A stretch of 64,000 bases of DNA from Azolla caroliniana (taxonomy: Eukaryota; Plantae; Polypodiophyta), in contig JBHGNT010000009.1 in assembly GCA_043228905.1 (NCBI GenBank), positions 5,146,001 to 5,210,000 of the forward strand. Direction: 5' to 3'. This document shows, in pieces, positions 9,801 through 59,382 of the stretch. The position numbers and the translations under genes are program-made. Position 1 is the first letter of the stretch; every line of letters begins with the position of its first letter. Below the pieces are notes generated by a model. It did not search any database. It had not been told where the DNA came from and saw only the letters and a program-made list of their open reading frames with translations.

Positions 9801-10283
9801 TTTGCCACATTACTCTATGATTCTTTCACCAAAGTGCATCATCCATGCCATTGTATAAACCATGGGAGTGCATGTGTAACGAGTCTCGTTCTTTCTCTAT
9901 TAATATGCAGCGTTGCAGTGGATGGCATACCTATTAGACAAGTCAAGAACAATGAGTATGCTGGTATTCCATATCTAAGACATGCCATGAAAGTACATGC
10001 AAGTATATGGGATGGAAGTTCTTGGGCCACCCAAGGAGGTCGTGTCAAAATTGACTATAATAATGCTCCGTTTGTGGCTTCCTTTGGTCGATTCAAGTTT
10101 GATGTTTGCAAAAAATTAACAACAAAATGCTTGGCTACAAGATGGTGGAATTCTCCTGCATATTCAACATTAACCACCGACCAACAAGCAAGTTTTCAAT
10201 GGGTTAAGGATAACTACATGATATACAACTATTGTGATGACCGAGAAAGATATCCAACACCTTTCCCTGAGTGTTCAATATAA
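6824..10283 (+). CDS. XTH: Xyloglucan endotransglucosylase/hydrolase (GH16), 4 exons: 6824-7022, 8818-8918, 9364-9557, 9911-10283; ~288 aa
   Basis: All introns are GT-AG and the phases join in frame. Exons 2 and 3 are 101 and 194 nt, the typical XTH sizes. Hydrophobic signal peptide, [11 protein letters not shown], catalytic DEVDFEFLG followed by N-glycosylation site [25 protein letters not shown], and C-terminal [14 protein letters not shown]...EC. Confidence 0.95.
7408..7650. repeat. Diverged tandem duplication (~143 bp period) in XTH intron 1
   Basis: TTTATTTGA.TGGAA.TTTGATTAATTTA...GACTTAATTTGAGTTTA...AAACCTCCATTT occurs near 7408 and 7551. Confidence 0.7.
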
Positions 10284-12814: not shown

Positions 12815-13253
12815 TGTCATGGTAAGACTCGAACCCATGACTTTATGCTGCATGGGTCGAGCTCTTACCATTAGATTATGAATTGTATTTTGTAGGATAT
12901 TATTTTCATTTATACTTTATCATAGAAAATTGATGTATATTCCAGATCTCTCTGGAACATTCTAGAAGCTTCAGGATTATTCCTAAAAACACTATAAAAG
13001 GAGGCACAAGGCATTGTTTTGAACCAAATTGGTTCAACGCCAGTCTTAAGCCTCTTAGCCGCTTGTACTTATCTTTTCACATAATATATAGCTGCTGTCA
13101 TCATCTCTCTCTCTCTCTCATTCTCGCTATCTCTCTCTCTCTCCTCTTCTCACTTCCTCTCTTGGGAATCTTACGCAGTCCCATCCTCTTAGTACTAATA
13201 GTACTGCTGTTCTTAGTACTAATTCCATCTCTGTTTTAGTACTATTCCTGATA
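12815..13253 (+). repeat. 5' LTR of chromovirus copy 1
   Basis: TGTCA...TGATA (terminal CA mutated to TA), TATAAAA at 12993, (CT)n tract, direct repeat of 18080-18518. Confidence 0.95.
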
Positions 13254-13322
13254 GTTTGAACCAATTTTTCCCTCTAGCCTACTTGTCACTCTCCCTCATC
13301 CTCCTACCCTTTTCCCTATACT

Positions 13323-14480
13323 ATGGCTACTGTTAGCGCCCAAGAATACCAATCCGTTTTCTCCGAGCTACAGTGCCTAAAAGAAAAGTTTGTTGCCCTG
13401 GAACAAGAAAACCAACGGCTGATAGGGGATCTGCAACAAATCGCTCTAGAAAAACAACAAACGCAACAACAACATGGGGAGTTAGCGTTACAGGTACAAC
13501 AACTCGAAGCAGCGTTGCAACAACAAGGATCCAGTCCCCAAGGATTTCATAAAGAGCCCAAGATTGGACTTCCTGTGAAATTTGATGGAACGCGTTCGCA
13601 ATTCCGGGGATTCCTTAATCAAGTACGCTTAGTCATCCAGATGCATCCTTCCCGATATCCCACTGATGCATCTCGAGTCGGCCTAATAGGCACGCTACTT
13701 AGCGGCTCAGCCTTGGCATGGTTTGCTCCGCTTCTAGAAAAACAATCACCCTTACTTAATAACTTTGAAGATTTTATTGGTGAGTTTAAAGCCTGCTTTG
13801 GAGACACCGACAGCATCAGGACGGCGATCAACAAGATCCGGCGATTGCGTCAAGGCGATCGTCCAGCCTCTGCCTACGCGGCGGATTTCCGCCTACTTGC
13901 TTCAGATATACCCTGGGATGATCAAGCACTAATGGAGCAGTTTCGCTATGGCTTGCGAAACGATGTCAAAGATCTACTTCTAACTTTCCCCGAAGAACCA
14001 AAGTCTCTTACGGAGGCAATCAGTCGAGCAGTTCGATGTGACAACCGCCTTTTTGAACGGCGTTCAGAACGTCAATTACAGATACCACACTCTAGGCCAG
14101 AGCCCACTTACGCCGCAGTCGCGGCTAAACCGTTTGCACGAGACATACCTCAAGCAAATACTTCGACACCGATGGAGATCGATACCATGCGTCAACGCGG
14201 CCCGTTATCGGAAGAAGAAAAGCAACGACGACGTGCCAATCGATTATGTCTTTATTGCGGTGGACCAGGACATATCGCCATCAATTGTCCCCATAGGCCA
14301 AGAAGACAGGTAAATAAAATCGTCGCCTGTACTAAACTCGAGTCAATTCTTCCCTTCGGAGTGTCTGATAGTATTAATAGTACTAATAGAGTGTCAGATA
14401 GTATTCATAGTACTAATAGCCCAAGTATCTCAAATAAATTTGAAATCCTTAGTCAATTAGATGAAGAGTTAAACGATTGA
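13323..14480 (+). CDS. gag: Retrotransposon Gag (coiled coil, PEG10/Ty3-like capsid, CCHC knuckle)
   Basis: PVKFDGTRSQFRGF, LRQGDRPASAYAADF, PMEID and CLYCGGPGHIAINC motifs. Confidence 0.93.
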   Translation: MATVSAQEYQSVFSELQCLKEKFVALEQENQRLIGDLQQIALEKQQTQQQHGELALQVQQLEAALQQQGSSPQGFHKEPKIGLPVKFDGTRSQFRGFLNQVRLVIQMHPSRYPTDASRVGLIGTLLSGSALAWFAPLLEKQSPLLNNFEDFIGEFKACFGDTDSIRTAINKIRRLRQGDRPASAYAADFRLLASDIPWDDQALMEQFRYGLRNDVKDLLLTFPEEPKSLTEAISRAVRCDNRLFERRSERQLQIPHSRPEPTYAAVAAKPFARDIPQANTSTPMEIDTMRQRGPLSEEEKQRRRANRLCLYCGGPGHIAINCPHRPRRQVNKIVACTKLESILPFGVSDSINSTNRVSDSIHSTNSPSISNKFEILSQLDEELND

Positions 14481-17400
14481 GTCCAGCCAAAATAGGAGCC
14501 ATTTGGTTGGACAGCAGCCCTAGATCTGTACAGCCCATTAGTGGTTCCATTCCTTCCAACCAAGTTAGCAATGTGTTCCTAGCCCAAGTCATTGTCAGTA
14601 CTAAAAGTACTCCCCCAGTACCCGTCCTATCACTTTTAGATTCCGGAGCTAATTCCTGTTTCATGGATCGAAATTTTGCCCAAGCTTCTCAGATATCCTT
14701 AAGAAAACTTCCTTGTCCCGCATCTGTAGTGGTCATTGATGGTCGTCCCATTGCTTCCGGGAATATTGTAGAAGAATCAGAACCCATTCAAGTTGTCCTA
14801 GGTAGTTTTGTGTGTATAATATCATTTAATATAATTAGTAGTCCAGAGCATCCCATTGTCCTAGGATTACCTTGGCTTGAATTACATAATCCAGCCATAG
14901 ATTGGAGAACAAGAGAAGTCCGATATCGACCACCCCAAGAATCAACTCACCGAGTTTCGACCATTTCACTCCATCAACTACGCGAACAAGGACCCAAGGA
15001 GGCAATGTTCCTATTTGCCATATCAGTACATCCTTCTAGCACTATTAAGAAGGACTCCTCAATACAACTTCCGGCAAAATATCATCCTTATGCCGATGTA
15101 TTTGACAAGGTAAAAGCCGGTACCCTTCCTCATCATCGTCCCTATGACTGTCCCATCGATTTACAACCAGGAACCGAGCCACCATGGGGACCAATTTACA
15201 ACTTGTCACCCACCAAGTTAGAAGTCCTTCGAGCCTACATAGAGGAGAACTTGGCAAGCGGGTTCATCCATCATTCGAAATCTCCGGCCGGTGCACCCAT
15301 CTTCTTTGTCAAGAAGAAAGATGGCTCACTTCGTCTTGTCGTTGATTACCGCGGATTGAATAAAGTCACCATCCGGAATAGGTATGCACTTCCTCTTATA
15401 TCAAGTCTTTTAGAGCGAGTTAATGGTGCCAAGTTTTTTACTAAAATCGACCTACGAGGAGCGTATAATCTCGTGCGGATCCGACCGGGAGATGAGTGGA
15501 AGACCGCTTTTCGCACGCGGTATGGGCATTTCGAGTATACTGTTATGCCGTTTGGCCTAACCAATGCACCCGCAGTCTTCCAACACATGGAAAATGATAT
15601 ATTCAGAGACCTCTTGGATATCTGTTTGATCATTTATCTGGATGATCTGTTGATTTATTCGAAGACCCAGGAAGAGCACGATTCTCATGTACTATTAGTA
15701 CTAAAGCGACTCCGCGAGAATGGTCTTTATGCCAAGCTAGAGAAATGTAGCTTTGACTGCAAGCAAGTGGAATTTCTAGGCTACGTCATCTCCTCAAAGG
15801 GCATCGCCATGGATCCAGCTAAAATCCGAACTGTACTAGAGTGGCAAATTCCACGGTCGGTACGAGATGTACAATGTTTTCTAGGCTTTGCTAACTTCTA
15901 CCGTAAGTTTATACAGGATTACTCGAAGATTATTTTACCTCTCACACAACTTACGAAGAAGGGCCAAGCATTTCTTTGGTCCATCGAAGCAGATATGGCT
16001 TTTCGGCATCTTAAGAAAACCTTTACATCAGCACCGATTCTAGCTCATGTGGATACAAGCAAACCATTCATCATGGAGGCCGACGCATCAGATTTCGCCC
16101 TCGGTAGCATCCTTTCTCAACAAGGCAATAAAGAAGAGTTGCATCCGGTGGCTTTCCATTCGCGCAAATTCAATGTCGCCGAAATCAACTACGAAATACA
16201 TGACAAGGAGTTATTAGCCATCGTGGATTCATTTGTACAATGGCGGCATTTCTTAGAGGGCTCTCCACATCAGGTCATTGTCTTTAGCGATCATAAAAAT
16301 CTTGCTTATTTTCAGAACGCTCGCGTACTAAATCGACGGCAAGCTCGGTGGGCGCAATTCCTCACACGTTTCAACTTCGAAATCACATATCGACCGGGCA
16401 AGCAGCAAGGAAAAGCAGATGCACTATCACGGCGTTCATATCTTGCACCTCGTCCTGGTGACGCAACATTTGATAATCAAAAGCAAGTAATCTTGGGACC
16501 AACACGATTGCACACGACGCGGATTTTTCACACCCCGATGGATTCACGGATTACCGATGACATACGTGCAACCTTGAAGACGGATAGTTTTGCTCAAGAC
16601 ATCCTGGCGCACATTGATACTTCTCGGGCATCCTGTTCTCAGTCTCAACAACCAGGTATTGACTACCGACAATTCGAATATCATGATGGTTTGTTATTCT
16701 TTAAAAAGCGTGTATATGTCCCCGATTGCTCCTGTCGCCTTCAAATCGTCCAACATTGTCACGACACCCATACGGCGGGACATTTCGGTAGTACCAAGAC
16801 GTTGGAGTTAGTGCAGCGATCTTTTTGGTGGCCCCACATGCGCCGTTTTGTCGACGACTACGTTCGGACCTGTGATGCTTGCTGCCGAGCAAAGATGCCA
16901 CGACACCATCCATATGGCTTGTTGGAACCTTTACCAATTCCAAGTAAGCCATGGCAGTCTATTTGTCTTGATTTTATCACAGATCTGCCGGTCTCGAAGG
17001 GGTTCGATGCTATCCTAACCGTCGTCGATCGATATACGAAGATGGCACATTTTGTGCCATGTACTAAAGCCATCACTAGCGAGGAAACCGCCGCTCTTGT
17101 TATGCGTGAGGTATTTCGGCATCATGGCCTACCAGACAGTATTATCAGTGACCGAGGCCCGCAATTTGTCTCCAAATTTTGGCAGCATCTCTTCAGGATG
17201 CTCAAGGTCTCCTGCAACCTCTCCTCCGGCTACCATCCTCAAACTGACAGACAGGCGGAACGAACAAACCAAACGTTGGAGCAATATCTCTGGTGTTTCC
17301 TGAGTTATCAACAGGACGATTGGGCCGAGATTCTCCACTTTGCGGAGTTTGCGTATAATAATGCTATTCACTCCTCGACTCGAGTCTCCCCATTTCTCGC

Positions 17401-17863
17401 TTATACCGGTTTCCATCCTCGCTGGTCGGTGATCGACACTCCGGAGCTACCTACCAACCCTCGTGCCAAGGACCATTTGGAGAGGCTACGCAAGATCCAG
17501 ATGGATCTCTCTACTCACCTTCGTCATGCTCAACACACACAGAAGACTTATGCGGATCGTCATCGGATGCCCTCCTCTTTTGCCATCGGAGATCGAGTAT
17601 GGCTCTTACGTCGTCACATCAAGACTACTCGACCGTGCGACAAGTTGGATTATCGACGACTCGGTCCTTTCCGTATTACGGGGAAGATTAATGATGTCAC
17701 CTTCCGCCTGGATCTCCCTCCGCAGCTTCAGGTACATCCGGTTTTCCATTGTTCTCTTCTTGAACCTTATAAAGCAAACACCATTCCCGATCGTGTGACA
17801 CCACCGCCGCCCCCGCCCGAGTCCAGTGTGGCCGCTGGAGTTGGACGCCGGCCCGGAGTATGA
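14477..17863 (+). CDS. pol: Pol polyprotein (PR-RT-RNase H-IN), reached by -1 frameshift; chromodomain out of frame
   Basis: LLDSGA (PR), YLDD (RT), DASDFALG/FSDHKNL (RH), HF..C..C and SDRGPQF (IN). Confidence 0.93.
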   Translation: MSPAKIGAIWLDSSPRSVQPISGSIPSNQVSNVFLAQVIVSTKSTPPVPVLSLLDSGANSCFMDRNFAQASQISLRKLPCPASVVVIDGRPIASGNIVEESEPIQVVLGSFVCIISFNIISSPEHPIVLGLPWLELHNPAIDWRTREVRYRPPQESTHRVSTISLHQLREQGPKEAMFLFAISVHPSSTIKKDSSIQLPAKYHPYADVFDKVKAGTLPHHRPYDCPIDLQPGTEPPWGPIYNLSPTKLEVLRAYIEENLASGFIHHSKSPAGAPIFFVKKKDGSLRLVVDYRGLNKVTIRNRYALPLISSLLERVNGAKFFTKIDLRGAYNLVRIRPGDEWKTAFRTRYGHFEYTVMPFGLTNAPAVFQHMENDIFRDLLDICLIIYLDDLLIYSKTQEEHDSHVLLVLKRLRENGLYAKLEKCSFDCKQVEFLGYVISSKGIAMDPAKIRTVLEWQIPRSVRDVQCFLGFANFYRKFIQDYSKIILPLTQLTKKGQAFLWSIEADMAFRHLKKTFTSAPILAHVDTSKPFIMEADASDFALGSILSQQGNKEELHPVAFHSRKFNVAEINYEIHDKELLAIVDSFVQWRHFLEGSPHQVIVFSDHKNLAYFQNARVLNRRQARWAQFLTRFNFEITYRPGKQQGKADALSRRSYLAPRPGDATFDNQKQVILGPTRLHTTRIFHTPMDSRITDDIRATLKTDSFAQDILAHIDTSRASCSQSQQPGIDYRQFEYHDGLLFFKKRVYVPDCSCRLQIVQHCHDTHTAGHFGSTKTLELVQRSFWWPHMRRFVDDYVRTCDACCRAKMPRHHPYGLLEPLPIPSKPWQSICLDFITDLPVSKGFDAILTVVDRYTKMAHFVPCTKAITSEETAALVMREVFRHHGLPDSIISDRGPQFVSKFWQHLFRMLKVSCNLSSGYHPQTDRQAERTNQTLEQYLWCFLSYQQDDWAEILHFAEFAYNNAIHSSTRVSPFLAYTGFHPRWSVIDTPELPTNPRAKDHLERLRKIQMDLSTHLRHAQHTQKTYADRHRMPSSFAIGDRVWLLRRHIKTTRPCDKLDYRRLGPFRITGKINDVTFRLDLPPQLQVHPVFHCSLLEPYKANTIPDRVTPPPPPPESSVAAGVGRRPGV

Positions 17864-18068
17864 AGTTGCTGCCATCCTCGATTCCAAACTTGTTCGCAAC
17901 AAACTTTATTACTTGGTCGATTGGCTCGGTTATAGTCCGAGCGAACGTACTTGGGAACCTGTCGAGAATGTTGCCAATGCACAAGATCTTCTTGCTGATT
18001 TCCACCGAAAGTATCCGGACAAACCCGGTCCGCAATTAGCGCCGACTCGTTCCACTCGTCGTCTTTAA
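17826..18068 (+). pseudogene. Chromodomain of copy 1 Pol, frameshifted by a ~22-nt insertion
   Basis: EYEVAAILDSK...YYLVDWLGYSPSERTWEP is in frame with Pol in copy 2 but not here. Confidence 0.85.
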
Positions 18069-18079
18069 GGGGGAGATAG

Positions 18080-18518
18080 TGTCATGACAAGACTCGAACC
18101 CATGACTTTATGCTGCATGGGTCGAGCTCTTACCATTAGATTATGAATTGTATTTTGTAGGATATTATTTTCATTTATACTTTATCATAGAAAATTGATG
18201 TATATTCCAGATCTCTCTGGAACATTCTAGAAGCTTCAGGATTATTCCTAAAAACACTATAAAAGGAGGCACAAGGCATTGTTTTGAACCAAATTGGTTC
18301 AACGCCAGTCTTAAGCCTCTTAGCCGCTTGTACTTATCTTTTCACATAATATATAGCTGTTGTCATCATCTCTCTCTCTCTCTCATTCTCACTCTCTCTC
18401 TCTCTCTCCTCTTCTCACTTCCTCTCTCGGGAATCTTACGCAGTCCCGTCCTCTTAGTACTAATAGTATTGCTGTTCTTAGTACTAATTCCATCTCTGTT
18501 TTAGTACTATTCCTGACA
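18080..18518 (+). repeat. 3' LTR of chromovirus copy 1
   Basis: TGTCA...TGACA, followed by TSD ATACA. Confidence 0.95.
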
Positions 18519-32356: not shown

Positions 32357-32974
32357 TGTCGTGAAGAAAACCGACCATAGGCGGAATCGGAGAGAAAGCG
32401 CGTAAATCGGCCCCTACATGGATGGACCCGTGACTGTATACTTTGTACACGAACCGGTGGATGTGACTACTAAGCCACACGCATTTATTAGAGGGGATTG
32501 TGCATATCCCAGAGAGGGGACAGGGAATAAAAGGAAGAAGGGAAGAGAAAAATGGCATCGCGCGCGAGGAGGAGGAGGGCGGTTGCTGCAGAACAGAAGG
32601 TGGAGCTCTCTCTCTTCGACTCGAATCGTCGCTCTCTGCGGGTGTCGGGAGGTCGCTGCCTCTGCTTCGTGGACAGCCCGTGTGCTTCCAACAGAGTCGC
32701 TCCCCTTCCACCTTTGTTTCTTTGAGTCGATGACTGTCGTCGGTGTGTGTGAGTAGGGTCCCCGTGTCGGGCCCGTCGCCGCTTTGTCGGTTGTAACTGT
32801 CAGAGTTTGTAATCTCTGTCATTATAATTAAGTGTTACGTTCTGTTTCTCTCTTTCTCGCTTCTACGTGTCGGTGAATCTGTCTCTCTCTCTGTCTCTCT
32901 TTCTCTCTCGCTCCTCGGTCCAAGACCCTCGTGGTCCCGCCCCTTTCTACACGCACGCGCGTAACAACGCGACA
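32357..32974 (+). repeat. 5' LTR of the Trp-primed element
   Basis: Direct repeat of 44385-44992 with TG...CA ends. Confidence 0.95.
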
Positions 32975-35763: not shown

Positions 35764-36053
35764 TGTCATAACTAGACTCGAACCCATAACCTTTTGTTAC
35801 ACGGGTCGAGACTTTACCATTAGGTTATGAGTTGTAATTTGAAGGATATTATTTTCATTTAGGTTTTATTAGGAAATTGATGTATATTCCAGATTTCTCT
35901 GGAACATTCTAGAAACTTCAGGAGTATTCCTGAAGACACTATAAAAGGAGGCGCAAGGCATTAGTTCGAACCAAATCGGTTCAACGCCAGTCTTAAGCCT
36001 TCTAACTACTGTTGTATATCTTCCGTCATATAATACATATATCTTTCGCATCA

Positions 36054-36109
<56 letters not shown>

Positions 36110-36242
36110 ACTCATTCCTTCTCTCAAAGTTCGACACCTCTCATAGTACTAATCCTTCTCTGTCTTAGTACTATTCCCCAACAATAGTACTAATCCTTCT
36201 TTTAGTACTAATTCCTTCTCTGCCTTAATAGAGTTCCTGACA
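35764..36242 (+). repeat. 5' LTR of chromovirus copy 2
   Basis: TGTCA...TGACA with TATAAAA at 35940. Confidence 0.96.
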
Positions 36243-36330
36243 GTTTGAACCGATTTCTCCTACTAGTCTCCCTCTTCCTTCTGTCTCTCTCCTTTCCTAC
36301 TAGTCTCTTATTTCCCTTTTCCTTCATCCC

Positions 36331-37500
36331 ATGGCCACCGTTAGCGCTGAAGAGTATCAATCCGTTTTCTCGGAATTTCAATGCTTGAAAGAGAAGTTTC
36401 ATGCTTTGGAACAAGAAAATCAACGCTTGTTGGGGGATCTTCAGCAAATTTCCTTAGAAAAGCAGCAAACGCAACAACATCATGGGGAACTTGCGTTACG
36501 CGTGCAACAACTCGAAGCAACCATCGTAGCAATGCAACAACAAGGGCACGGAGCACAAGGGATTCATAAAGAACCCAAGATTGGCCTTCCCACGAAGTTC
36601 GATGGAACGCGATCGCAGTTTAGAGGGTTTCTTAACCAGGTACGGTTAGTTATTCAAATGCATCCGTCCCGATATCCCACCGATGCATCACGAGTGGGTT
36701 TAGTAGGCACGTTGTTAAATGGCTCAGCATTAGCATGGTTCGCTCCGCTACTAGAAAAGGAATCTCCAGTACTAAATAATTTTGAAGAATTCATAAGTGA
36801 GTTTAAAGCATGTTTTGGAGATACTGACAGCATAAGGACTGCAATCAACAAAATCCGGCGATTACGCCAAGGTGACCGTCCAGCCTCCGCATATGCTGCA
36901 GATTTCCGCCTACTCGCCGCCGATATCCCCTGGGATGATCAAGCATTGATGGAGCAGTTCCGCTATGGTCTACGCAACGATGTCAAGGATTTACTCTTGA
37001 CTTTCCCTGAAGAGCCAAAATCATTAACAGAAGCAATCAGTCGAGCGGTCAGATGTGACAACCGCCTCTTCGAGCGACGTTCGGAACGACAATTTCAGAT
37101 GCCGAGGGCAAGATCCGAGCCTACCTATGCCTCAATGGTAGCGAAACCTTTTCAAAGGGAGTCACATAATGCGCCTCCAGTAAGTACTCCAACTCCAATG
37201 GAAATTGACACTACACGTCGTCGTGGGCCGCTATCGGAGGAGGAAAAGCAACGACGCCGAACAAACCGATTATGCCTTTATTGCGGTGGACCAGGGCATA
37301 TCGCGATAAACTGTCCCCATAGACCAAGAAGGCAGGTAAACCAAGTCATTGTTAGTTCTGACTATACTAAACCCGAGTCTATGTCAGTAGGAATCTCTGA
37401 TAATCCTCATAGTCATAATAGTCCTAATAGTACTAATAGTCCGAATCTCGCAAACAAATTTGATGTCCTTAGCCAATTAGAAGAAGAGTTAAACGACTAA
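36331..37500 (+). CDS. gag: Retrotransposon Gag (capsid + CCHC knuckle)
   Basis: Close paralogue of 13323-14480, with CLYCGGPGHIAINC. Confidence 0.95.
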   Translation: MATVSAEEYQSVFSEFQCLKEKFHALEQENQRLLGDLQQISLEKQQTQQHHGELALRVQQLEATIVAMQQQGHGAQGIHKEPKIGLPTKFDGTRSQFRGFLNQVRLVIQMHPSRYPTDASRVGLVGTLLNGSALAWFAPLLEKESPVLNNFEEFISEFKACFGDTDSIRTAINKIRRLRQGDRPASAYAADFRLLAADIPWDDQALMEQFRYGLRNDVKDLLLTFPEEPKSLTEAISRAVRCDNRLFERRSERQFQMPRARSEPTYASMVAKPFQRESHNAPPVSTPTPMEIDTTRRRGPLSEEEKQRRRTNRLCLYCGGPGHIAINCPHRPRRQVNQVIVSSDYTKPESMSVGISDNPHSHNSPNSTNSPNLANKFDVLSQLEEELND

Positions 37501-37526
37501 GTCCAGCCAAAATAGGAGCCGTTTGG

Positions 37527-40500
37527 TTGGACAGCCCTAGATCTGTGCAGCCCATTAGTGGTTCCATTCCCTCTAAGCAAGTTAGTGATGTGTTCGTAGT
37601 CCAAGTAGCAGTTAGTACTAAAAGTACCCCTCCAGTACATACCTTAGCCCTTCTAGATTCCGGAGCTAATTCTTGCTTCATGGATAGGAATTTTGCCCGA
37701 GCTCATCAGATATCTCTCAGAAAGCTCCCATGTCCAGCCTCAGTAGTAGTCATTGATGGTCGTCCCATTGCTTCTGGTAATATCATAGAAGAGTCGGAAC
37801 CCGTTAATATTGTCCTAGATAACTTAACATGTGTAGTATCATTTAATATTATTAGTATTCCAGAACATCCCATAGTTTTAGGATTACCATGGTTCGAGTT
37901 ACATGACCCAGACATAGATTGGAGGACAAGGGAAATCCGGTTGCGACAAACCCAAGGATCTACCCAGAAGGTTGCAACCATTTCGCTACGTCAGTTGCGT
38001 GAGGAAGGGCGCAAGGAGGAAATGTTTCTCTTTGCAATATCAGTACAACCCTCCAGCACCACCAAAGAGGAGTCCACCGTTCAACTTCCCGAGAAGTATC
38101 GTCAGTATGCTGATGTGTTCGATAAAGTACAAGCCAACACACTTCCTCATCATCGGCCGTACGACTGCGCCATCGACTTACAACCGGGAAAAGAGCCGCC
38201 ATGGGGGCCGATCTACAATTTGTCACCAACCGAGCTAGAAGTCCTTCGAGCCTATATAGAGGAGAATTTGGAGAACGGTTTCATTCGGCATTCGAAATCT
38301 CCAGCCGGCGCACCCATTTTCTTCGTCAAGAAAAAAGATGGCTCGCTTCGACTCGTTGTAGATTACCGTGGCTTGAATAAGGTCACAGTAAGAAATAGGT
38401 ATGCTCTTCCCCTTATCTCAAGTCTTTTAGAACGGATCAACGGTGCCAGGTTCTTCACGAAGATCGACTTACGAGGAGCCTATAACCTCGTACGGATCCG
38501 ACCAGGAGATGAATGGAAGACCGCGTTTCGCACCAGATATGGGCACTTCGAGTATACGGTCATGCCGTTCGGACTCACTAATGCGCCGGCAGTCTTCCAG
38601 CACATGGCGAATGATATATTTCGAGACCTCTTGGATGATTTTTTGATCATCTATTTGGATGATCTACTGGTTTATTCAAAGACCCAAGAAGAACATGATT
38701 CTCATGTACTATTAGTACTAAAACGACTTCGAGAACATGGTCTGTATGCAAAGTTAGAGAAATGTAGTTTCGGGTGCAACCAAGTGGAGTTTCTCGGCTA
38801 TGTCATCTCCTCAGAAGGCATATCTATGGACCCAGCCAAGGTCAAAACGGTGATAGAATGGCACACTCCGCGTTCGGTGCGGGATGTGCAATGCTTCCTA
38901 GGCTTTGCAAATTTCTACCGGAAGTTCATACAAAATTACTCAAAAATTGTGCTGCCTCTCACACAGCTCACCAGGAAGGGACAATCATTCATTTGGTCTA
39001 AAGAGACGGACATGGCTTTCGAGAGTCTTAAGAAGGCGTTTACATCAGCTCCAATTTTAGGTCATGTGGATCCGGAAAAACCATTCATTATCGAAGCTGA
39101 TGCATCGGATTTCGCATTGGGGAGCATTCTGTCACAACAGGGTAACGACGAGAAGCTACATCCTGTGGCTTTCCACTCCCGTAAGTTTGACGCCGCCGAA
39201 ATCAACTACGAAATTCATGATAAAGAGCTATTAGCAATAGTTGATTCTTTTATGCAATGGAGGCATTTCCTGGAGGGATCTCTTCATCAGGTCACTGTAT
39301 TCAGTGACCACAAGAACCTTGCCTACTTTCAAGATGCTCGTGTACTGAATCGACGTCAAGCTCGGTGGGCCCATTTCCTCACACGCTTCGACTTCAAAAT
39401 TACATATCGTCCGGGGAAGCACCAAGGGAAGGCAGATGCATTATCACGGCGTTCGTATCTAACACCACGTCCCGGTGAGCCAGCTTTCGATAACCAGAAG
39501 CAAGTAATCTTGGGTCCAGCACGACTGCAAGCAGCACAGATCTTTGACATGCCCGTGGATTCCGACATTACCAATACTATACGTGAGGACTTGAAGACTG
39601 ACGCTTTCGCCCAAGCTATACTAGCACAAATTGACCCCTCTCGAGCGTCATGTTCACAATCACAATCACCAGGTACGGATTATCGGCAATTCAAATACTG
39701 TGATGGATTACTCTTCTTTAAAGAACTTTTGTATGTTCCTAATGGTTCTTGCCGCCTTCGAGTAGTACAAAACTGCCATGACACATATACAGCAGGACAT
39801 TTTGGTAGTACTAAAACATTAGATTTAGTACAACGATCATTCTGGTGGCCCCGTATCCGACAATTTGTCGAAGATTTTGTTCGGACTTGCGATACATGCT
39901 GCAGAGCGAAAATGCCAAGACATCATCCATATGGTTTATTAGAACCATTACCAATTCCAAGCAAGCCATGGCAATCCATTGCTCTTGACTTCATTACAGA
40001 TCTTCCAGTCTCTAAGGGATTCAGTGCGATTCTCACAGTGGTGGATCGATATACGAAGATGGCTCATTTCTTACCATGTACTAAAGAAATATCTAGTGAA
40101 GACACCGCCGAAATTGTCATGCGGGAAGTATGTCGGCATCATGGACTCCCTGATAATATCATCAGCGATCGTGGACCCCAGTTTGTGTCAAAATTCTGGA
40201 AGCACCTTTTTAAAATGCTGAAGGTCACTTGTAACCTCTCCTCCGGCTACCACCCACAAACCGACGGTCAAGCCGAACGAACAAATCAAACACTGGAGCA
40301 GTATCTGCGGTGCTTTCTCAACTATCATCAGAATGACTGGGCAGATATTCTTCCGTTCACCGAATTTGCCTATAATAACGCTATCCACGCATCGACTAAA
40401 GTCACGCCATTCTACGCTTATACGGGATATCATCCTCGGTGGTGTGTCCTTGAAACCCCAGAAGTGTCCACAAATCCTTGCGCGGAGGATCGTTTGGAGC

Positions 40501-41084
40501 GGTTACGCAAGATACAAGCGGATTTATCTACTCAACTCCAGCAAGCTCAACAATCACACAAGGACTACGTAGATCGTCATCGACTTCCATCCAGTTTTAA
40601 CATTGGAGATCGGGTGTGGCTGCTACGACGACACATCAAGACTACTCGCCCATGTGAGAAGTTGGATTATCGACGATTAGGTCCTTTCCGTATTATCGGG
40701 AAGATTAATGATGTCGCTTTTCGTCTCGAGCTACCTCCGCAACTTCGGATACACCCGGTGTTTCATAGTTCTCTCCTCGAACCCTATCACGAGAGCACTA
40801 TCCCAGGACGTACTATACAACCTCCACCTCCTATCGAGCTCGAAGATGGACCTGAGTATGAGGTCGCTGCCATCCTCGATTCCAAGATTGTTCGCAACAA
40901 GCTCTACTATCTAGTCGATTGGCTAGGATATAGTCCCAGCGAGCGTACTTGGGAACCGATCGAGAATGTGACCAATGCTCGTGCTCTTCTAGAAGACTTC
41001 CATCGACGATATCCCGAGAAACCGGGTCCTCAATCCAAAACGACTCGTGAAACTCGTCGTTTTAAAGGGGGGATAGTGTCATAA
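37527..41084 (+). CDS. pol: Pol polyprotein PR-RT-RH-IN-chromodomain (true entry by -1 frameshift at ~37488-37494)
   Basis: LLDSGA, YLDD, DASD, GYHPQTDGQAER and EYEVAAILDSK..YLVDWLGY..TWEP all lie in one frame. Confidence 0.96.
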   Translation: MDSPRSVQPISGSIPSKQVSDVFVVQVAVSTKSTPPVHTLALLDSGANSCFMDRNFARAHQISLRKLPCPASVVVIDGRPIASGNIIEESEPVNIVLDNLTCVVSFNIISIPEHPIVLGLPWFELHDPDIDWRTREIRLRQTQGSTQKVATISLRQLREEGRKEEMFLFAISVQPSSTTKEESTVQLPEKYRQYADVFDKVQANTLPHHRPYDCAIDLQPGKEPPWGPIYNLSPTELEVLRAYIEENLENGFIRHSKSPAGAPIFFVKKKDGSLRLVVDYRGLNKVTVRNRYALPLISSLLERINGARFFTKIDLRGAYNLVRIRPGDEWKTAFRTRYGHFEYTVMPFGLTNAPAVFQHMANDIFRDLLDDFLIIYLDDLLVYSKTQEEHDSHVLLVLKRLREHGLYAKLEKCSFGCNQVEFLGYVISSEGISMDPAKVKTVIEWHTPRSVRDVQCFLGFANFYRKFIQNYSKIVLPLTQLTRKGQSFIWSKETDMAFESLKKAFTSAPILGHVDPEKPFIIEADASDFALGSILSQQGNDEKLHPVAFHSRKFDAAEINYEIHDKELLAIVDSFMQWRHFLEGSLHQVTVFSDHKNLAYFQDARVLNRRQARWAHFLTRFDFKITYRPGKHQGKADALSRRSYLTPRPGEPAFDNQKQVILGPARLQAAQIFDMPVDSDITNTIREDLKTDAFAQAILAQIDPSRASCSQSQSPGTDYRQFKYCDGLLFFKELLYVPNGSCRLRVVQNCHDTYTAGHFGSTKTLDLVQRSFWWPRIRQFVEDFVRTCDTCCRAKMPRHHPYGLLEPLPIPSKPWQSIALDFITDLPVSKGFSAILTVVDRYTKMAHFLPCTKEISSEDTAEIVMREVCRHHGLPDNIISDRGPQFVSKFWKHLFKMLKVTCNLSSGYHPQTDGQAERTNQTLEQYLRCFLNYHQNDWADILPFTEFAYNNAIHASTKVTPFYAYTGYHPRWCVLETPEVSTNPCAEDRLERLRKIQADLSTQLQQAQQSHKDYVDRHRLPSSFNIGDRVWLLRRHIKTTRPCEKLDYRRLGPFRIIGKINDVAFRLELPPQLRIHPVFHSSLLEPYHESTIPGRTIQPPPPIELEDGPEYEVAAILDSKIVRNKLYYLVDWLGYSPSERTWEPIENVTNARALLEDFHRRYPEKPGPQSKTTRETRRFKGGIVS

Positions 41085-41366
41085 CTAGACTCGAACCCAT
41101 AACCTTTTGTTACACGGGTCGAGACTTTACCATTAGGTTATGAGTTGTAATTTGAAGGATATTATTTTCATTTAGGTTTTATTAGGAAATTGATGTATAT
41201 TCCAGATTTCTCTGGAACATTCTAGAAACTTCAGGAGTATTCCTGAAGACACTATAAAAGGAGGCGCAAGGCATTAGTTCGAACCAAATCGGTTCAACGC
41301 CAGTCTTAAGCCTTCTAACTACTGTTGTATATCTTCCGTCATATAATACATATATCTTTCGCATCA

Positions 41367-41414
<48 letters not shown>

Positions 41415-41547
41415 ACTCATTCCTTCTCTCAAAGTTCGACACCTCTCATAGTACTAATCCTTCTCTGTCTTAGTACTATTCCCCAACAATAGTACTAATC
41501 CTTCTTTTAGTACTAATTCCTTCTCTGCCTTAATAGAGTTCCTGACA
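41077..41547 (+). repeat. 3' LTR of chromovirus copy 2
   Basis: Repeat of 35764-36242, followed by TSD CCCGA. Confidence 0.96.
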
Positions 41548-44279
41548 CCCGACAGTTGTCAAACCGATGGTGATCTTCACAGTACCGCATGTACCGTGGA
41601 ATCTCAAGCTGATTCCGGTGCCAAGAGCTCACATCCCGAAGTTGATGGAGCTCCTAAAGCAAAAGGTGGAGATGGGCATCCTCAAACCGTCGAGTGCCCC
41701 GTATTCGAATCGGTGGTTTACGGTGCCGAAGAAGAACGGCACGATGCGCTTCATCCAGGACCTACAACCGGTCAACAAGGTGACCATCCGTAATGTAGGG
41801 ATGGGACCGACCATAGACGAGTTCGCGGAGGCCTTCGCTGGAAGGTCGATCTATTCTGTCGGTGATCTGTACTCGGGGTATGATCAGTTCCAACTAGCCG
41901 TGGAGAGCAGAGACATTACGACGATGCGGACTCCTCTTGGCCTAGTGCGGATGTGTACCCTGCCACAAGGAGGGACGAACTCAGTGGCTCACATGGTGAA
42001 CACAATGAACAAAGTGCTCAGGGATTGTATCCCGGACATCACCATCCCGTTCTTAGACGACATCCCGATCAAGGGATGCCCGGTGGAGAAAAGGGACGAG
42101 GCAATCGGGCCGGACGGATGTCGAATTTTCGTGGCATCCCACATCGATGACTGCGAGAAGGTGTTGCAGAGACTAGAGCGCGCCATGCTCACCTTCTCCT
42201 GGGAAAAGTCGCCCTTCGGACAGTTGGAGATCTTGGTGGCCGGACACCTGTGTAGGCCTTACGGTAGAAAACCGTCTCCGGCAAAGGTAGAGGCCATCTC
42301 CGCGATGAGGAACGTTTGCGGGTCGGTCACGGAGGTCCGCAAATTCTTGGGGGCATGCGCATTCTACCACATCTGGATCCCGCACTACGCACATGTCGCG
42401 GAACCCCTCTACGGACTATTGAAAAGGGGGCGTAGCTTTGAGTGGAGGACGGAGCACACGGAGTCGGTTCGGAGACTAAAGGAGGCGCTTACGGCAGCGC
42501 CGGCTCTCCGTAAAGCGGTTTACGGCAAGGATGTTCCCATCTCGTAATGGTGGACACCAGCCCGACCGGGATCGGGTGGGTAATCAGTCAGGAGGACAAG
42601 GGCGGCGTACGATTCCCGATCTGGTTCAGCGCGAAGCTATTGAGCGAGCAGCAGCGAGCAGCAGCGAGGGTACGCCCAAGTTAAGCGCGAACTTTGGGGT
42701 GTCGTTTCGGCAGTCAAGGCTGACAAGGATTATCTGATCGGGACGGAGGTGATTATCGAGACGGACTGCCTGCCGATACTCGGCATGGTTTCCGGATGCG
42801 CGACGCCGGACCTAGCAATGCTCCGGTGGATAGCGTACATTAAGTCCCTGAACCCGGAGATACGGCACATCTCCGGAAAGGTCAATACCATGGCCGACAT
42901 GCTTTCGAGGGCAAGGTTCAACGACGAAGACGGCATGGTTTTGGAAGACGAAGAAGTCGGCGAGGACTTCTTTGGGTCGGCTAATGTAACGACAAGAAGG
43001 AAAGGGAACACTCCGCCGCTTAACGATTTTGACGAAAGCAGGTACGACAGGGAGTGGCTCCAAATCAGGAGGTTCCTACAGACGATGATATCAGACGTAG
43101 CATGGGCGAGAGAGGAGGCGAGCCGAATACGGAGGAAGGCGTACCGATTCTTCCTGCGGGACGGGTGCATATGGAAGCACCCAAAGAAGAGAAGCGGCAT
43201 CCCACTCCAAGTAGTGGCAAAGAAAGAAGCTGAAGGAGAAGTACTGGTGGCCGGGGCTATACCAGGACGTGCATCGGTTCGTAACGACTTGCGAAAGCTA
43301 TCAGGTGCACTCCGTAGTCCGACACCGGGATGAGCTCCACCCGACCTACCCGCCTACAGTCCATTTCAAGTGGATGGTGGACTTGGTGACAATGCCGATG
43401 GGGGTAGGATAGATGCGATACCTGGTGCTTGCAAGGGAAGACCTAACGAACCAGGTGGAAGGTCGTGCACTACAAAGCAAGACAACCGCGGCGGTATGCC
43501 AGTTCCTGATCGAAGAAGTAGTGTGTCAGTACGGGTGCGTCGGGATGATCGTGGCGGACCGGGGAGAAATGGATGCGCGGGAGGCCGAGGAGCTGTTTGA
43601 CCGGCTAGGCGTCAAACTCTCCCTCACCACGGCGTACAATCCGGAGGCGAACGGAAAGGTGGAACGTGGGCACAGACCGATTGTAAAGGCGTTGGTGCGT
43701 GCATGCGGTGGGCAGGTCGGGAATTGGCCGCGACTCCTTCCTTACGCGCTATGGGCGGACCGTACTACGCACAGTTCGGTGACGGGGTTTATGCCAGCGG
43801 AGCTAATGTACGGACAAAATCTGATCATGCCGGTGGAACGGACGGTTTCTTCGTGGGCGGCGGTAGATTGGAAGGACGAAATGAGCCAGGAGGAGTTGCT
43901 AGCGGCGCGGATTCAACAACTCGAGCGGAGGCCGGAGGACGTGATACAGGTGAAGGAAAAGCTGCAAGCGGCGAGGGAGCGGAACAAGACCCGGTTCAAC
44001 CGGACGCACCGGTTGCGACCAAAGAAGATCGAGGAAGGCGACTGGGTCTTGGTATACGACAGCAGCCTCGACAATCAGCACAAGGCGGTGCGAAAGCTTG
44101 CTAGGAGATGGTTTGGGCCCTACATGGTGACGAGCGCGAACGGCAACGGCACGTACCACCTCGCGGAACTCGACGGGACACGGTTAGCAGTGCCAGTGGC
44201 TGGAAAGCGGATCAAAGCTTTCAAAAAGCGGTTCGAAGACGAGCCGGAGCCTGCGAGCCAGAGCGACAATGACGATTAG
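41548..44279 (+). pseudogene. RT-RNase H-integrase of the Trp-primed element (frameshifts, stop, internal deletion)
   Basis: DLYSGYDQ, LPQGGTNS, FLDDIPIKG, IETDCLP, ADRGE, TTAYNPEANGKVER and WFGPY. It continues the 34776-35763 frame segment across the CCCGA TSD. Confidence 0.9.
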
Positions 44280-44384: not shown

Positions 44385-44992
44385 TGTCGTGAAGAAAACC
44401 GGCCATAGGCGGAATCGGAGAGAAAGCGTGCAAACCGGCCCCTACATGGATGGACGCGTGACAGTATACTTTGTACATGAACCGGTGGATGTGACTACTA
44501 AGCCACATGCATTTATTAGAGGGGATTGTGCGTATCCCAGAGAGGGGACAGGGAATAAAAGGAAGAAGGGAAGACAAAAATGGCATCGCGCGCGAGGAGG
44601 AGGAGGGAGGTTGCTGCAGAACGGAAGGCGGAGCTCTCTCTCTTCGACTCGAATCGTCGCTCTCTGCGGGTGTCGGGAGGTCACTACCTCTGCTTCGTGG
44701 ACAACCCGTGTGCTTCCAACAGAGTTGCTCCCCTTCCCCCTTTGTTTCTTTGAGTCGGTGACTGTCGTCGGTGTGCGTGAGTAGGGTCCCCGTGTCGGGC
44801 CCGTCGCCGCTTTGTCGGTTGTAACTATCGGAGTTTGTAATCTCTGTCATTATAATTAAGTGTTACGTTCTCTTTCTCGCTTATACATGTCGGTGAATCT
44901 ATCTCTCTCTCTCTCTCTCTCTCTCTCGCTCCTCGGTCCAAGACCCCCGTGGTCCCGCCCCTTTCTACACGCACACGCGTAACAACGCGACA
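44385..44992 (+). repeat. 3' LTR of the Trp-primed element
   Basis: Direct repeat of 32357-32974. Confidence 0.95.
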
Positions 44993-50691: not shown

Positions 50692-51896
50692 TGTCAGGAG
50701 TAGTACTAAGACAGAGAAGTATTGTTAGGAACAGTACTAAGACAAAGAAGGAATTAGTACTAAAAGATGAGGATTAGTACTAAGGGAGGTGTAGAACTCT
50801 CGAGAGAAGGAAAGAGTGAGAAAGAAAGAAAGAAAGAAAGATGTATTAACGTCTTCTAAGGCCAAATTTGGCCCATGAGACAATTGGTTTACAACAATAG
50901 AGTATTTATCCAGTCATCATAACTAAAAATAAAATTAAGTAAAAAAAATAGAACTTAAACTAAAAGAGTTCTAGTAGTGTACAATATGTAGTATACTCGA
51001 AAGTGACTATACACTAAGCCTAATTTTATTTCCACCCAAGCCTCTCGAAAAGAAGTGGGGGGTCAAAGGGTCTTAATGTGGGTTCCAATGTAGAGAGTGC
51101 CCTAGCCATGGCTTCTAGGCGGTGTAGCTCACGTTCCCTTATTTTCAATATTGCTTCCACATCACGTTGAGTTGCTTTGAAACCCGGCACCCGAGGACGT
51201 CTGGTTCTTCTCTGGTTTTCTGCCTCATCAATGGAAAGGCCGAGTGGTGCAAGTGTGTCGGCATTCGTTGTCTCCTCAGGTTCCTGAAAAACTGCATTTG
51301 TTACATGTTCGTGATCATTAGCAACATTATTGTCAACATTTTGTAATTTATTCTCTCTGTGTTGTTTTAGCTCTAGAATGTATTTGCCTAATTTCTTTAT
51401 ATCTAGAGTATCTAATAGTTTGGGGAGGGTGGGAGACGGACCAAGTATGTCTTGGTATTTTGCCCTTATCTCGGCATAGGTTGGACACTTGCATGTAAAG
51501 TGGTACTCATCCTCTATCTCTATGTGACATAACCTACATATCCTTTCCTCCCTAGGGACTCCACTAGTACGGCCACTAGAGAGAGAGAGAGAGAGAATGA
51601 TGATAACAGAATATATATATTATGTTAAGAGAATATACAATAGTAGCTAGGAGGTTTAAGACTGGCGTTGAACCGATTTGGTTCGAAATAATGCCTTGTG
51701 CCTCCTTTTATAGTGTTCTCGGGAATACTCCTGAAGTTTCTAGAATGTTCCAGAGAAAGCTAGAATATACATCAATTTTATATAGTAAAACTTAAAGGAA
51801 AATAATATTTTTTGCATTACAATATATAGTCTAATGGTCAAGAGCTCAACCCATGTAACATAAGGTCATGGGTTCGAGTCTTGCCATATCATGACA
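50692..51896 (-). mobile_element. Solo LTR of the Tcn1-like family, interrupted by a non-LTR fragment
   Basis: Reverse complement of the 12815/35764 LTRs at 50692-50820 and 51579-51896. TSD ACGTC on both sides. Confidence 0.93.
50822..51578 (-). mobile_element. 5'-truncated non-L1 LINE 3' end (RTE-X/L2-like Cys-His C-terminus) inserted in a (GA)n tract
   Basis: Minus-strand translation GVPREERICRLCHIEIEDEYHFTCKCPTYAEIRAKY, with a (CTTT)n tail. Confidence 0.7.
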
Positions 51897-57605: not shown

Positions 57606-58208
57606 CTATGCGAAGATGAACTCGTACTTGAACCAAAAGAAGAGGTTCCCATTGGAGTCGGTGCCAGAGTCAGCGAGAGGATATGTGATGGCAACACCTG
57701 TAGCAAGCGTGAAGTCATCGGTGCCTCCAACGATAGGTTTAGTGCTATTGAGGCCAATATACTCCAATCCAACAGCAGAGAAGGTTCCATTCAATCCCCC
57801 AATCGAAGCCCCATTATCGATTACGAATGATTCAGACACAAAAATGACTTTACCATTGTTTTGGTCCACAAATGTGTATGTCCCACGAACGCGACCGAGC
57901 AAGGTTGATGACAAGCTCTGGGAAGACAACAAAGGCATGTCGAATGTGTAGCCATTCCCGAACTCGAGGGGTTCAGGGATGGTAGGCCTAGATGTGAGGA
58001 CTGTGTTGTATCCGCTCCCGACCGTGGTGTTAGCGCCTCTCCGAGAAAGATAGTTATATGCGGTTATGGAGGGTAATTTCTTCTTCTTCAAGATCTTAGC
58101 ATGATTTTGGTGTGCCGCGGTTGGTCGCACATATGTTGGCATGGCTATGGCGACAACAAGTAAGGTAGTTATTAGAAGACAATAGCTAATAGAGATTCTT
58201 GAAGCCAT
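57606..58208 (-). CDS. Dirigent-like secreted protein, 200 aa, single exon
   Basis: Signal peptide, FGNGYTFDMPL...SSTLLGRVRGTY (compare FG.V.DDPL...GRAQG.Y), NGTFSAVG, and PIVGGTDDFTLATG (compare IVGGTGDF..ARG). Upstream TATAAAA near 58340. Confidence 0.85.
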   Translation of the reverse strand: MASRISISYCLLITTLLVVAIAMPTYVRPTAAHQNHAKILKKKKLPSITAYNYLSRRGANTTVGSGYNTVLTSRPTIPEPLEFGNGYTFDMPLLSSQSLSSTLLGRVRGTYTFVDQNNGKVIFVSESFVIDNGASIGGLNGTFSAVGLEYIGLNSTKPIVGGTDDFTLATGVAITYPLADSGTDSNGNLFFWFKYEFIFA

Positions 58209-59382
58209 GGAAGCTTGAGGTTTAGGTTACAAATTTTGTACTTAAGAATATTGCCTTTAAGAAGATGACCTTTGTAGCAATATTTTAGGGGTAGGGGTGA
58301 TGAATTGTGTACATTTTGTTAGTCTTTAGAGGATGGGCTTTTATAACAAAGTTATTGCTCAATATTGTCTTCTTTTGACCATTCTCCATCCAAAAACAAA
58401 ATGGCAAACTTTGTTTCTTCTCTTTTAACTTAAGTATAACAAGTTGTCACCTATTCTTTTGTACTTTATAATGCTTCATGCACATTGCGCACATAGTACT
58501 TAACTGCAACCTCATGATTATTCTTTTTCTTTATTATTCAATTTGTCTCCATGGACACACAAAATTAATACCATATGTTGCTTTTATAATTTCTCATATA
58601 TAACAATTCTTGTCTTATTGTTCTACGTGTTGATGTAGTATCCATAAACAAACTACATCTCATGAACTAGAGTATTGACAATTCTTATCTACCAAGCCAA
58701 TCTTGACAAAGACCTCTCCAAAGATGATGTATCCAAAGATGTTATGACTTGGGCTAATGTTTAACATCAACATTATACTAATTGAATTATTGTTGCAATA
58801 TTTCTATTATAAATTATAAATGAGATGAAAAATAAGCTTAATTCAGTCTAGCATCAAAGAATATACATATAACATCATGTCAACTTGGACTAAAATGTTC
58901 AATAGGCTACTTTCCAAGGTCATATAGTAAACCATCATTACAAGTTACAACTTAATCCTAAATGAGCTACTTTCATATATTAGACAATAACATCGCAACA
59001 ACGACGTCTTGAATAAGCTAATTTCATATGCTCTATGATAGCTTGTTGCCTCGCTTCAAGTCATTCTACACCTTCGATAATAAGAAAAACTACATGTTGG
59101 GTGGTGTATATTAAGTCGTTGGACAATATCATCCATGCAATACAATGACATGAGGTACTTCCAATGTTGTTTAGCTTGTATTGGGAGTGCAAACTATTTC
59201 ATCCACAATAATTAACCTTAGAGACATGGTTGTGCCATCTTGCATCGGCTTGTTTTCCACGGTTGATGTTTCAAGTTGTTGTAAACCAACCTAAGCCAAA
59301 TGAAATCAAGATATCATGTTCCATATAGAGATTGAACTATTGAAGTAAATGCATGGTTATTATGTCAACCCAAGAAGACGTT

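Follow-up and report, generated by a model that had tools for sequence, protein, structure and literature searches.

Why would retrotransposons that prime their own reverse transcription carry, reversed and at the outer end of every long terminal repeat (LTR), promoter boxes like those of a tRNA gene? The question arises from a 64,000-nucleotide stretch of Azolla caroliniana DNA (here called the window; positions count from its first letter), in which two chromoviruses and a solo LTR represent one family with three subfamilies. The original prediction, made from the letters alone, proposed an outward-facing, tRNA-derived Pol III promoter or insulator in these LTRs. We find that antisense boxes at the LTR edge are a real and conserved feature, and weigh what they may do.

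Results

A self-priming chromovirus family

Element 1 (12815..18518, + strand) has 439-bp LTRs with 8 substitutions seen between them, a target site duplication (TSD) of ATACA, gag (13278-14480, +), pol (14465-17863, +) and a chromodomain (17835-18035, +) in a frame that differs from that of pol. Element 2 (35764..41547, +; TSD CCCGA) has LTRs at 35764-36242 and 41077-41547 with 0 substitutions and an 8-nt repeat indel between them, gag (36304-37500, +) and a pol frame that includes the chromodomain (37473-41084, +). Both elements, of ~5.7 kb, encode gag, RT, RNase H, integrase and chromodomain in the Ty3/gypsy order, with the chromodomain C-terminal (PF00385 in element 2; out of frame in element 1). 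The chromodomain carries Y, W and Y, picked out by eye, which we take to be the aromatic-cage residues. The solo LTR (50692..51896, - strand; TSD GACGT) is genuine and is interrupted at ~50843-51577 by an unrelated 735-bp insertion, which sits in its CT repeat ~250 nt from the A box. This insertion holds a 197-codon open frame with no Pfam match, and no second copy of it was found within the window.

A TATA-like box, with a presumed Pol II role, was located in the 5' LTR of element 1 (12993-12999, +) and of element 2 (35940..35946, +), ~110 nt inward of the A box and of opposite polarity. A polypurine tract (PPT) precedes the 3' LTR (element 1, 18067-18079, +; element 2, 41064..41076, +, within the last pol codons). 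The pol frame crosses the PPT and ends in the first bases of the 3' LTR, both in the window (41064-41084) and in many of the related loci L009-L052.

The primer binding site (PBS) of 13 nt (element 1, 13255-13267, +; element 2, 36244..36256, +, just after the 5' LTR) is complementary to the LTR itself. Its partner in the R region (element 1, 13026-13038, +; element 2 5' LTR, 35973..35985, +) lies ~33 nt beyond the TATA box and is complementary at 12/13 positions, and the two elements differ there by a compensatory change. Pairing is maintained through changes in both elements, in L014 and in the LTRs at L016 ~815 and L018 ~505, which bears out the prediction that this element does without a tRNA primer. 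The same self-priming arrangement is reported for Tf1/Sushi and Tcn1 in the available text of PMC6317226.

We label the elements Tcn1-like chromoviruses by their features; no named reference Tcn1 protein was among the database matches. As described in the parts of PMC2864245 and PMC6317226 at hand, the Tcn1 clade shares with them gag-pol, an aromatic-cage chromodomain, ~440-bp TG...CA LTRs, a 5-bp TSD, a self-priming PBS and a plant host. Those parts mention TATA and CAAT boxes in SM-Tcn1 LTRs and do not mention Pol III boxes, whereas the elements described here carry A and B boxes.

The window as a whole is repeat-rich land-plant DNA. Element 2 is nested between 94%-identical LTRs (32357-32974 and 44385-44992) of an older, non-chromovirus-like Gypsy element, and RT and RNase H pieces follow it at 41546-43333. 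Host genes are represented by an XTH exon (GH16 and XET_C; 9753-10283, +) and by a dirigent-like gene (57606-58226, -) that has few relatives and a fern sequence as its closest named match (56%).

A reversed tRNA-type promoter layout in all five LTRs

The solo LTR shows the module on the + strand, with letters and positions as predicted: an A box at 51827..51838 (tRNA positions 8-20; core AATGGT, 51833-51838), a variable-loop-like block at 51862..51867 (positions 43-48; AGGTC, 51863-51867) and a B box at 51871..51880 (positions 52-61), which starts 44 nt past the A-box start. The same layout, at tRNA spacing and antisense to the LTR, stands at the start of the other four LTRs on the - strand: 12826..12878 (B box 12826-12835, A core 12867-12872) and 18091..18143 (18091-18100, 18132-18137) in the 5' and 3' LTRs of element 1, and 35775..35827 (35775-35784, 35816-35821) and 41088..41140 (41088-41097, 41129-41134) in those of element 2.

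Five exact copies of the B-box 10-mer lie in the window (minus strand at 12826, 18091, 35775 and 41088; plus strand at 51871), each of them within the first 30 nt of an LTR and antisense to it. A joint A-core/B-box pattern, set post hoc after the data had been seen, gave 5 matches in the window, all of them modules, against 0.01 per shuffled window. We also built a tRNA profile HMM from 31 short-arm tRNAs of E. coli and phage T5; on the 64-kb window the modules took ranks 1-5 of its 8 matches, with an E-value of 0.008 for the solo LTR and of 0.2-0.3 for the other four. The proposed tRNA-like origin is thus backed by a profile made from unrelated tRNAs.

Resemblance to a tRNA stops at the primary sequence. 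Neither the window nor 53 related loci yielded a tRNA with ARAGORN (relaxed to 80%, its calls were scattered everywhere and were rejected as noise), and Rfam gave no tRNA match at E ≤ 10 for the solo LTR, L014, L049 or L048. Cloverleaf pairing in alignment A3 was 57.7%, no better than shuffles (30/500 equalled or exceeded it), and the anticodon stem was only 36% paired. The module is therefore tRNA-gene primary sequence without tRNA structure: by these tests it does not qualify as an actual tRNA gene, and the covariance-model similarity that was to be checked failed to appear, as would be expected of a promoter-only relic.

For the source isotype, a blastn search against phages gave only matches with E of at least 2 (3/12 records annotated as tRNA-Met or tRNA-Val), and two motif searches were empty. 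The 3' side of the L014/L016 module is, as we see it, presumably reminiscent of plant tRNA-Val. A free SINE was considered and rejected: DNA contigs that continue unlike the LTR make up a share of 0-0.02 at 80% likeness, and the module ends at the LTR terminus.

Presence and polarity in related lineages

Relatives were collected from metagenome contigs by a chromodomain scan that was blind to the motif, which gave 53 loci of 42-99% identity. LTR starts were defined by PPT and TG only, with at least 130 nt available; 36/53 loci could be placed, 17 were dropped (12 without PPT and TG, 5 at contig ends), and the three window LTRs were added (n = 39). Allowing ≤ 1 mismatch, the B box was found antisense in 35/39 LTR starts and sense in 0/39, with 1.7% in shuffles; it was missed in L046, L053, L058 and the distant L061. 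An A core lay 37-38 nt upstream of the B box in 30/35. The tRNA profile matched 35/39 LTR starts, all antisense and 22 at E ≤ 0.05, and among the dropped loci it matched L013, L027, L048 and, weakly, L050.

Module-bearing loci fall into about six groups of a chromodomain tree that is based on 67 columns and weakly resolved: the window clade, L014/016/026/034, L043/049, L036/041, L038/039 and L042/044/045. Their contigs come from related lineages and are all of one accession series. No B box was found in the 348-600 nt examined of the outgroups L056, L061 and L001-L008 (the last being distant outgroups from a viral collection), while L054 and L055 were too short to judge. Two further viral scans and a prokaryote scan for relatives returned no loci. 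Over the first 330 nt of six representatives, sharing at a common place was limited to the terminal heptamer and 5-mers of the three blocks. The strict motif was located in LTRs, apart from one unplaced case at the contig end of L048.

Several loci show further arrangements. The first 150 nt of the L036 LTR contain local duplications of the LTR start and the A-box segment, which displace the B box to 63 nt from the end with the A-B spacing still at 38. Further LTR types with antisense module, PPT and self-priming PBS occur at L018 ~505-590 and L016 ~815-900; each of these two contigs joins two LTR types and is probably a collapsed or chimeric assembly. L048 (4985-5062) carries a GC-rich, more tRNA-like A/B module with a strong hairpin of its own (-40.6 kcal/mol), at a contig end that, on the opposite strand, begins with TG; this module may mark where an LTR of another family begins, or it may be a SINE head. 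A separate tRNA- or SINE-head-like stretch lies outside the chromodomain-adjacent LTR at L014 1013-1056, and also in L017, L019 and L020.

Boxes conserved where their surroundings are not

The original prediction singled out the boxes as invariant across the window's three subfamilies. Among these subfamilies the TATA/R region is just as conserved, so the window alone cannot show special box conservation, and the support comes from distant relatives. On 25 aligned modules in nine lineages, between-lineage identity was 0.82 for both the A core (51832-51838) and the variable-loop block; the B box reached 0.81, a figure that is partly circular because the modules were excised anchored on the B box (the A core and variable loop were unanchored). 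Elsewhere it was 0.43 (upstream), 0.52 (positions 8-12), 0.47 (D-arm 3' side), 0.44 (anticodon-arm region) and 0.38 (3' flank). Across lineages, then, the boxes are more conserved than their flanks, as predicted (0.81-0.82 vs 0.38-0.52).

Position by position, in 13 high-coverage contigs and two window copies (n = 15), B-box positions 52-56, 58 and 61 were invariant, and 57 (G/A), 59 and 60 (T/C) varied, which coincides with the variable positions of the 31 real tRNAs. C56T was absent from these copies, though the sister CpG change G57A was common. A43, A44, G46 and T47 were invariant (15/15), more so than in the reference tRNAs. The strict A+B pattern was intact in 13/13 high-coverage vs 5/15 low-coverage non-redundant contigs (Fisher p = 2.5e-4), a test in which both threshold and pattern were post hoc, coverage stands in for copy number, and contigs of low coverage may hold errors. 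In DNA contigs from three related organisms (368-2104 contigs per run), variants above 8% fell at 51810-51831 and 51848-51860 in solo-LTR coordinates, and none among those listed fell at 51832-51847 or 51861-51896.

Hairpin and LTR terminus

A long imperfect hairpin overlaps the B box (51840..51884 in the solo LTR, no strand assigned) and is strong in only part of the clade. The hairpin foreseen for copy 1 is real, at about -30 kcal/mol. Within the window family it is strong (z mostly -3.5 to -7; L029 -2.6), and it is moderate in L036, L040 and L041 (z -2 to -3). By the antisense fold (z above -1.4) it is absent from L014, L015, L016, L022, L026, L034, L038, L039, L043, L044, L045, L049 and L051, and all 13 of these keep the B box. 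We therefore regard the hairpin as a separate feature, kept in only part of the clade, that does not account for the boxes. Nor does the integrase att site explain them: across relatives the gap between B box and LTR end ranges from 11 to 63 nt, too variable for such a site.

Two-sided changes were seen in 9/15 hairpin pairs (2-4/500 shuffles on three measures), in an alignment where 10/25 rows belong to one family that was also the source of the structure; this covariation hints at an RNA-level role of the hairpin in part of the clade, a point against the barrier reading discussed below. Between the two LTRs of element 1, a pair of neighbouring bases is changed (12822-12823 vs 18087-18088) in a way that makes the 5' LTR hairpin perfect, and this could be a hairpin-templated (quasi-palindrome) mutation.

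Discussion

A candidate TFIIIC barrier

Our preferred explanation, to which we give a probability of roughly one-half, is that the outward-facing boxes bind TFIIIC and would act as a portable tDNA-type barrier for the inner Pol II promoter. It starts from what is seen in the LTRs: tRNA-like boxes, antisense and at fixed spacing, sit at the LTR start, and they are conserved where spacer, flanks and cloverleaf pairing are not. Judged from this comparison, they very probably go back to a single ancient event in which a tRNA gene or SINE head was captured, and were retained by selection for TFIIIC recognition. If so, TFIIIC, with or without TFIIIB and Pol III, would occupy the interval that separates the flank from the Pol II TATA box, and by analogy we lean slightly towards its holding that promoter open. 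Chromodomain integrases likely deliver the elements into heterochromatin, and, with the two promoters diverging, Pol II in the 5' LTR would be spared collisions. That a reversed tRNA promoter may serve clade-wide as a built-in TFIIIC/Pol III insulator in heterochromatin-seeking autonomous chromoviruses is a more tentative suggestion.

Published barriers offer a precedent within the accessible parts of the sources. In S. pombe, tDNA barriers function whichever way they point and depend on the A box, TFIIIC and Pol III, and B-box-only barriers also exist (PMC2040200). These barriers and mouse B2 (PMC8136502) have A/B boxes at a border between chromatin states, as proposed here; they are host loci or SINEs, whereas here the boxes are built into an autonomous LTR with a presumed barrier action. 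The moss chromovirus RLG1 is described as lying in heterochromatic islands, yet being transcribed (PMC7466625). Counting against the barrier reading, the mouse B2 boundaries are reported to have blocked active and not silent chromatin (PMC8136502). The S. pombe tDNA barrier also requires an upstream Pol III TATA element (PMC2040200), and no common element of this kind could be picked out in the AT-rich sequence here, which likewise speaks against it. The highly invariant A43, A44, G46 and T47 lie outside the usual B box, and TFIIIC binding gives no obvious account of them. Contigs of runs X15 and X23 span the module; that these are RNA is only a guess, and being unstranded and possibly DNA they are not evidence of expression.

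Other readings of the boxes

The main rival, which we consider unlikely, takes the boxes as a functional Pol III promoter with a product that matters: transcription out of the 3' LTR would cross the PPT and the end of the chromodomain coding region and yield an antisense, SINE-like RNA which, as in Ty1, would limit copy number or reverse transcription. Antisense control of Ty1 is described in the available part of PMC12786077. Retention of the A box alongside the B box fits such a promoter, as does the long hairpin that the window family, L040 and L036/L041 have and in which some changes are compensatory, but the hairpin is missing from several lineages that keep the boxes. Antisense T4 runs in the last 150 pol codons number 5 observed vs ~18 expected from codon shuffles, a deficit drawn from 11 non-independent homologues and seen also in outgroup L056 (3 vs 5.5). 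There is moreover no conserved terminator (the first T4 comes at distances ranging from 17 to >600 nt), and T4 falls between the boxes in L026, L034 and L045.

Less probable again is that the U3 of the sense RNA anneals to the D and T-psi-C arms of a host tRNA, much as the bipartite PBS of Ty3 does, and so would aid dimerisation, packaging or strand transfer. Place and polarity match the U3 component of Ty3, which pairs with those same two arms of its primer tRNA in the consulted part of PMC5371799, and annealing would explain positions 43-47, invariant or nearly so outside the B box. Ty3, however, is primed by that tRNA and matches one species, whereas the present clade self-primes, its PBS holding no tRNA, and keeps box positions only. 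Conservation runs in separate blocks with positions 45, 49 and 59 free, G52, G53, T54 and T55 never show the changes that G-U wobble would tolerate (15/15), and the hairpin of the window family would hide the site in RNA.

The two least favoured readings begin with the boxes as a neutral relic of an old tRNA or SINE insertion, or as a by-product of the U3 hairpin or att site. It could appeal to the missing cloverleaf and the blank Rfam and ARAGORN results, and to hairpin arms that are both as invariant as the boxes within the window family. It is largely refuted by the 13 loci that keep the boxes with hairpin z above -1.4, by a spacer that drifted to 0.44 identity while the boxes stayed at ~0.8, by the B-to-end distance of 11-63 nt and by box defects that concentrate in low-coverage contigs. 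Slightly less likely still is that a TFIIIC site, lying as it does near the cDNA end, tethers that end to TFIIIC-rich nuclear sites or makes the LTR a landing pad for Pol III-targeting elements, given that ARAGORN finds no tRNA gene near the three insertions in the window, that the insertion in the solo LTR lies in the CT repeat ~250 nt from the A box, and that loose ends are not piled up just upstream of the A box among the matches listed.

Relation to known LTR promoters

The LTR of the fungal chromovirus marY1 is said to have SINE-like A/B boxes, which would be possible prior art. They are not stated in the available portion of PMC10627285. A tRNA-dimer insertion in a mosquito LTR (PMC3286476, as far as its accessible text goes) was set aside as a one-off and a different thing.

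The closest precedent is Helenus/TRIMp3 (Kojima 2024, PMC10886601; described here from part of that paper), with tRNA-derived LTR sequence whose conservation centres on boxes A and B, no functional tRNA, a 5-bp TSD, an occurrence in plants and fungi and one family in Selaginella. The elements described here share with it tRNA-derived A/B boxes within the LTR. Helenus is non-autonomous (311-1263 bp) and tRNA-primed, whereas these elements are ~5.7 kb long, encode gag-pol and have a PBS that pairs with their own R region. The Pol III promoter of Helenus is proposed to transcribe the element; here the antisense boxes of the 5' LTR are directed out of the element, so that they cannot make genomic RNA, and a Pol II TATA box is kept. 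We therefore reject membership in Helenus, three of the four features tested (non-autonomy, tRNA PBS and self-transcribing promoter) having failed. The Cassandra and Ajax TRIMs, in the same portion of PMC10886601, likewise have a Pol III promoter from a small-RNA gene in both LTRs, but theirs is 5S-derived in non-autonomous elements, and that of Cassandra drives its own transcript, whereas here it points outward in autonomous ones.

In the text at hand, Kojima also points to similarity with a stretch of tRNA in "not a few LTRs" of Repbase, the autonomous ones being left without analysis (PMC10886601). The original prediction knew of no description of such a module. For tRNA-derived A/B boxes in LTRs this does not hold, as the non-autonomous Helenus shows; for the antisense arrangement in autonomous elements it does, in that no account of antisense tRNA-type promoters in the LTRs of autonomous chromoviruses came up in a full-text literature that covers few subscription papers. 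What sets the present case apart from Helenus and Cassandra is the autonomy of the elements and the antisense direction of the boxes.

Implications

Should the barrier reading be right, Pol III promoters in LTRs would extend beyond non-autonomous TRIMs, which they presumably transcribe, to autonomous elements that they are unable to transcribe. A tDNA-type barrier built into the LTR would also offer a concrete mechanism in cis by which heterochromatin-targeting chromoviruses stay transcribed: each insertion would bear its own anti-silencing wall. The family is abundant in several related host species, which would mean many added TFIIIC sites in these genomes, with thousands of copies and solo LTRs seeding TFIIIC boundary sites across the host genome.
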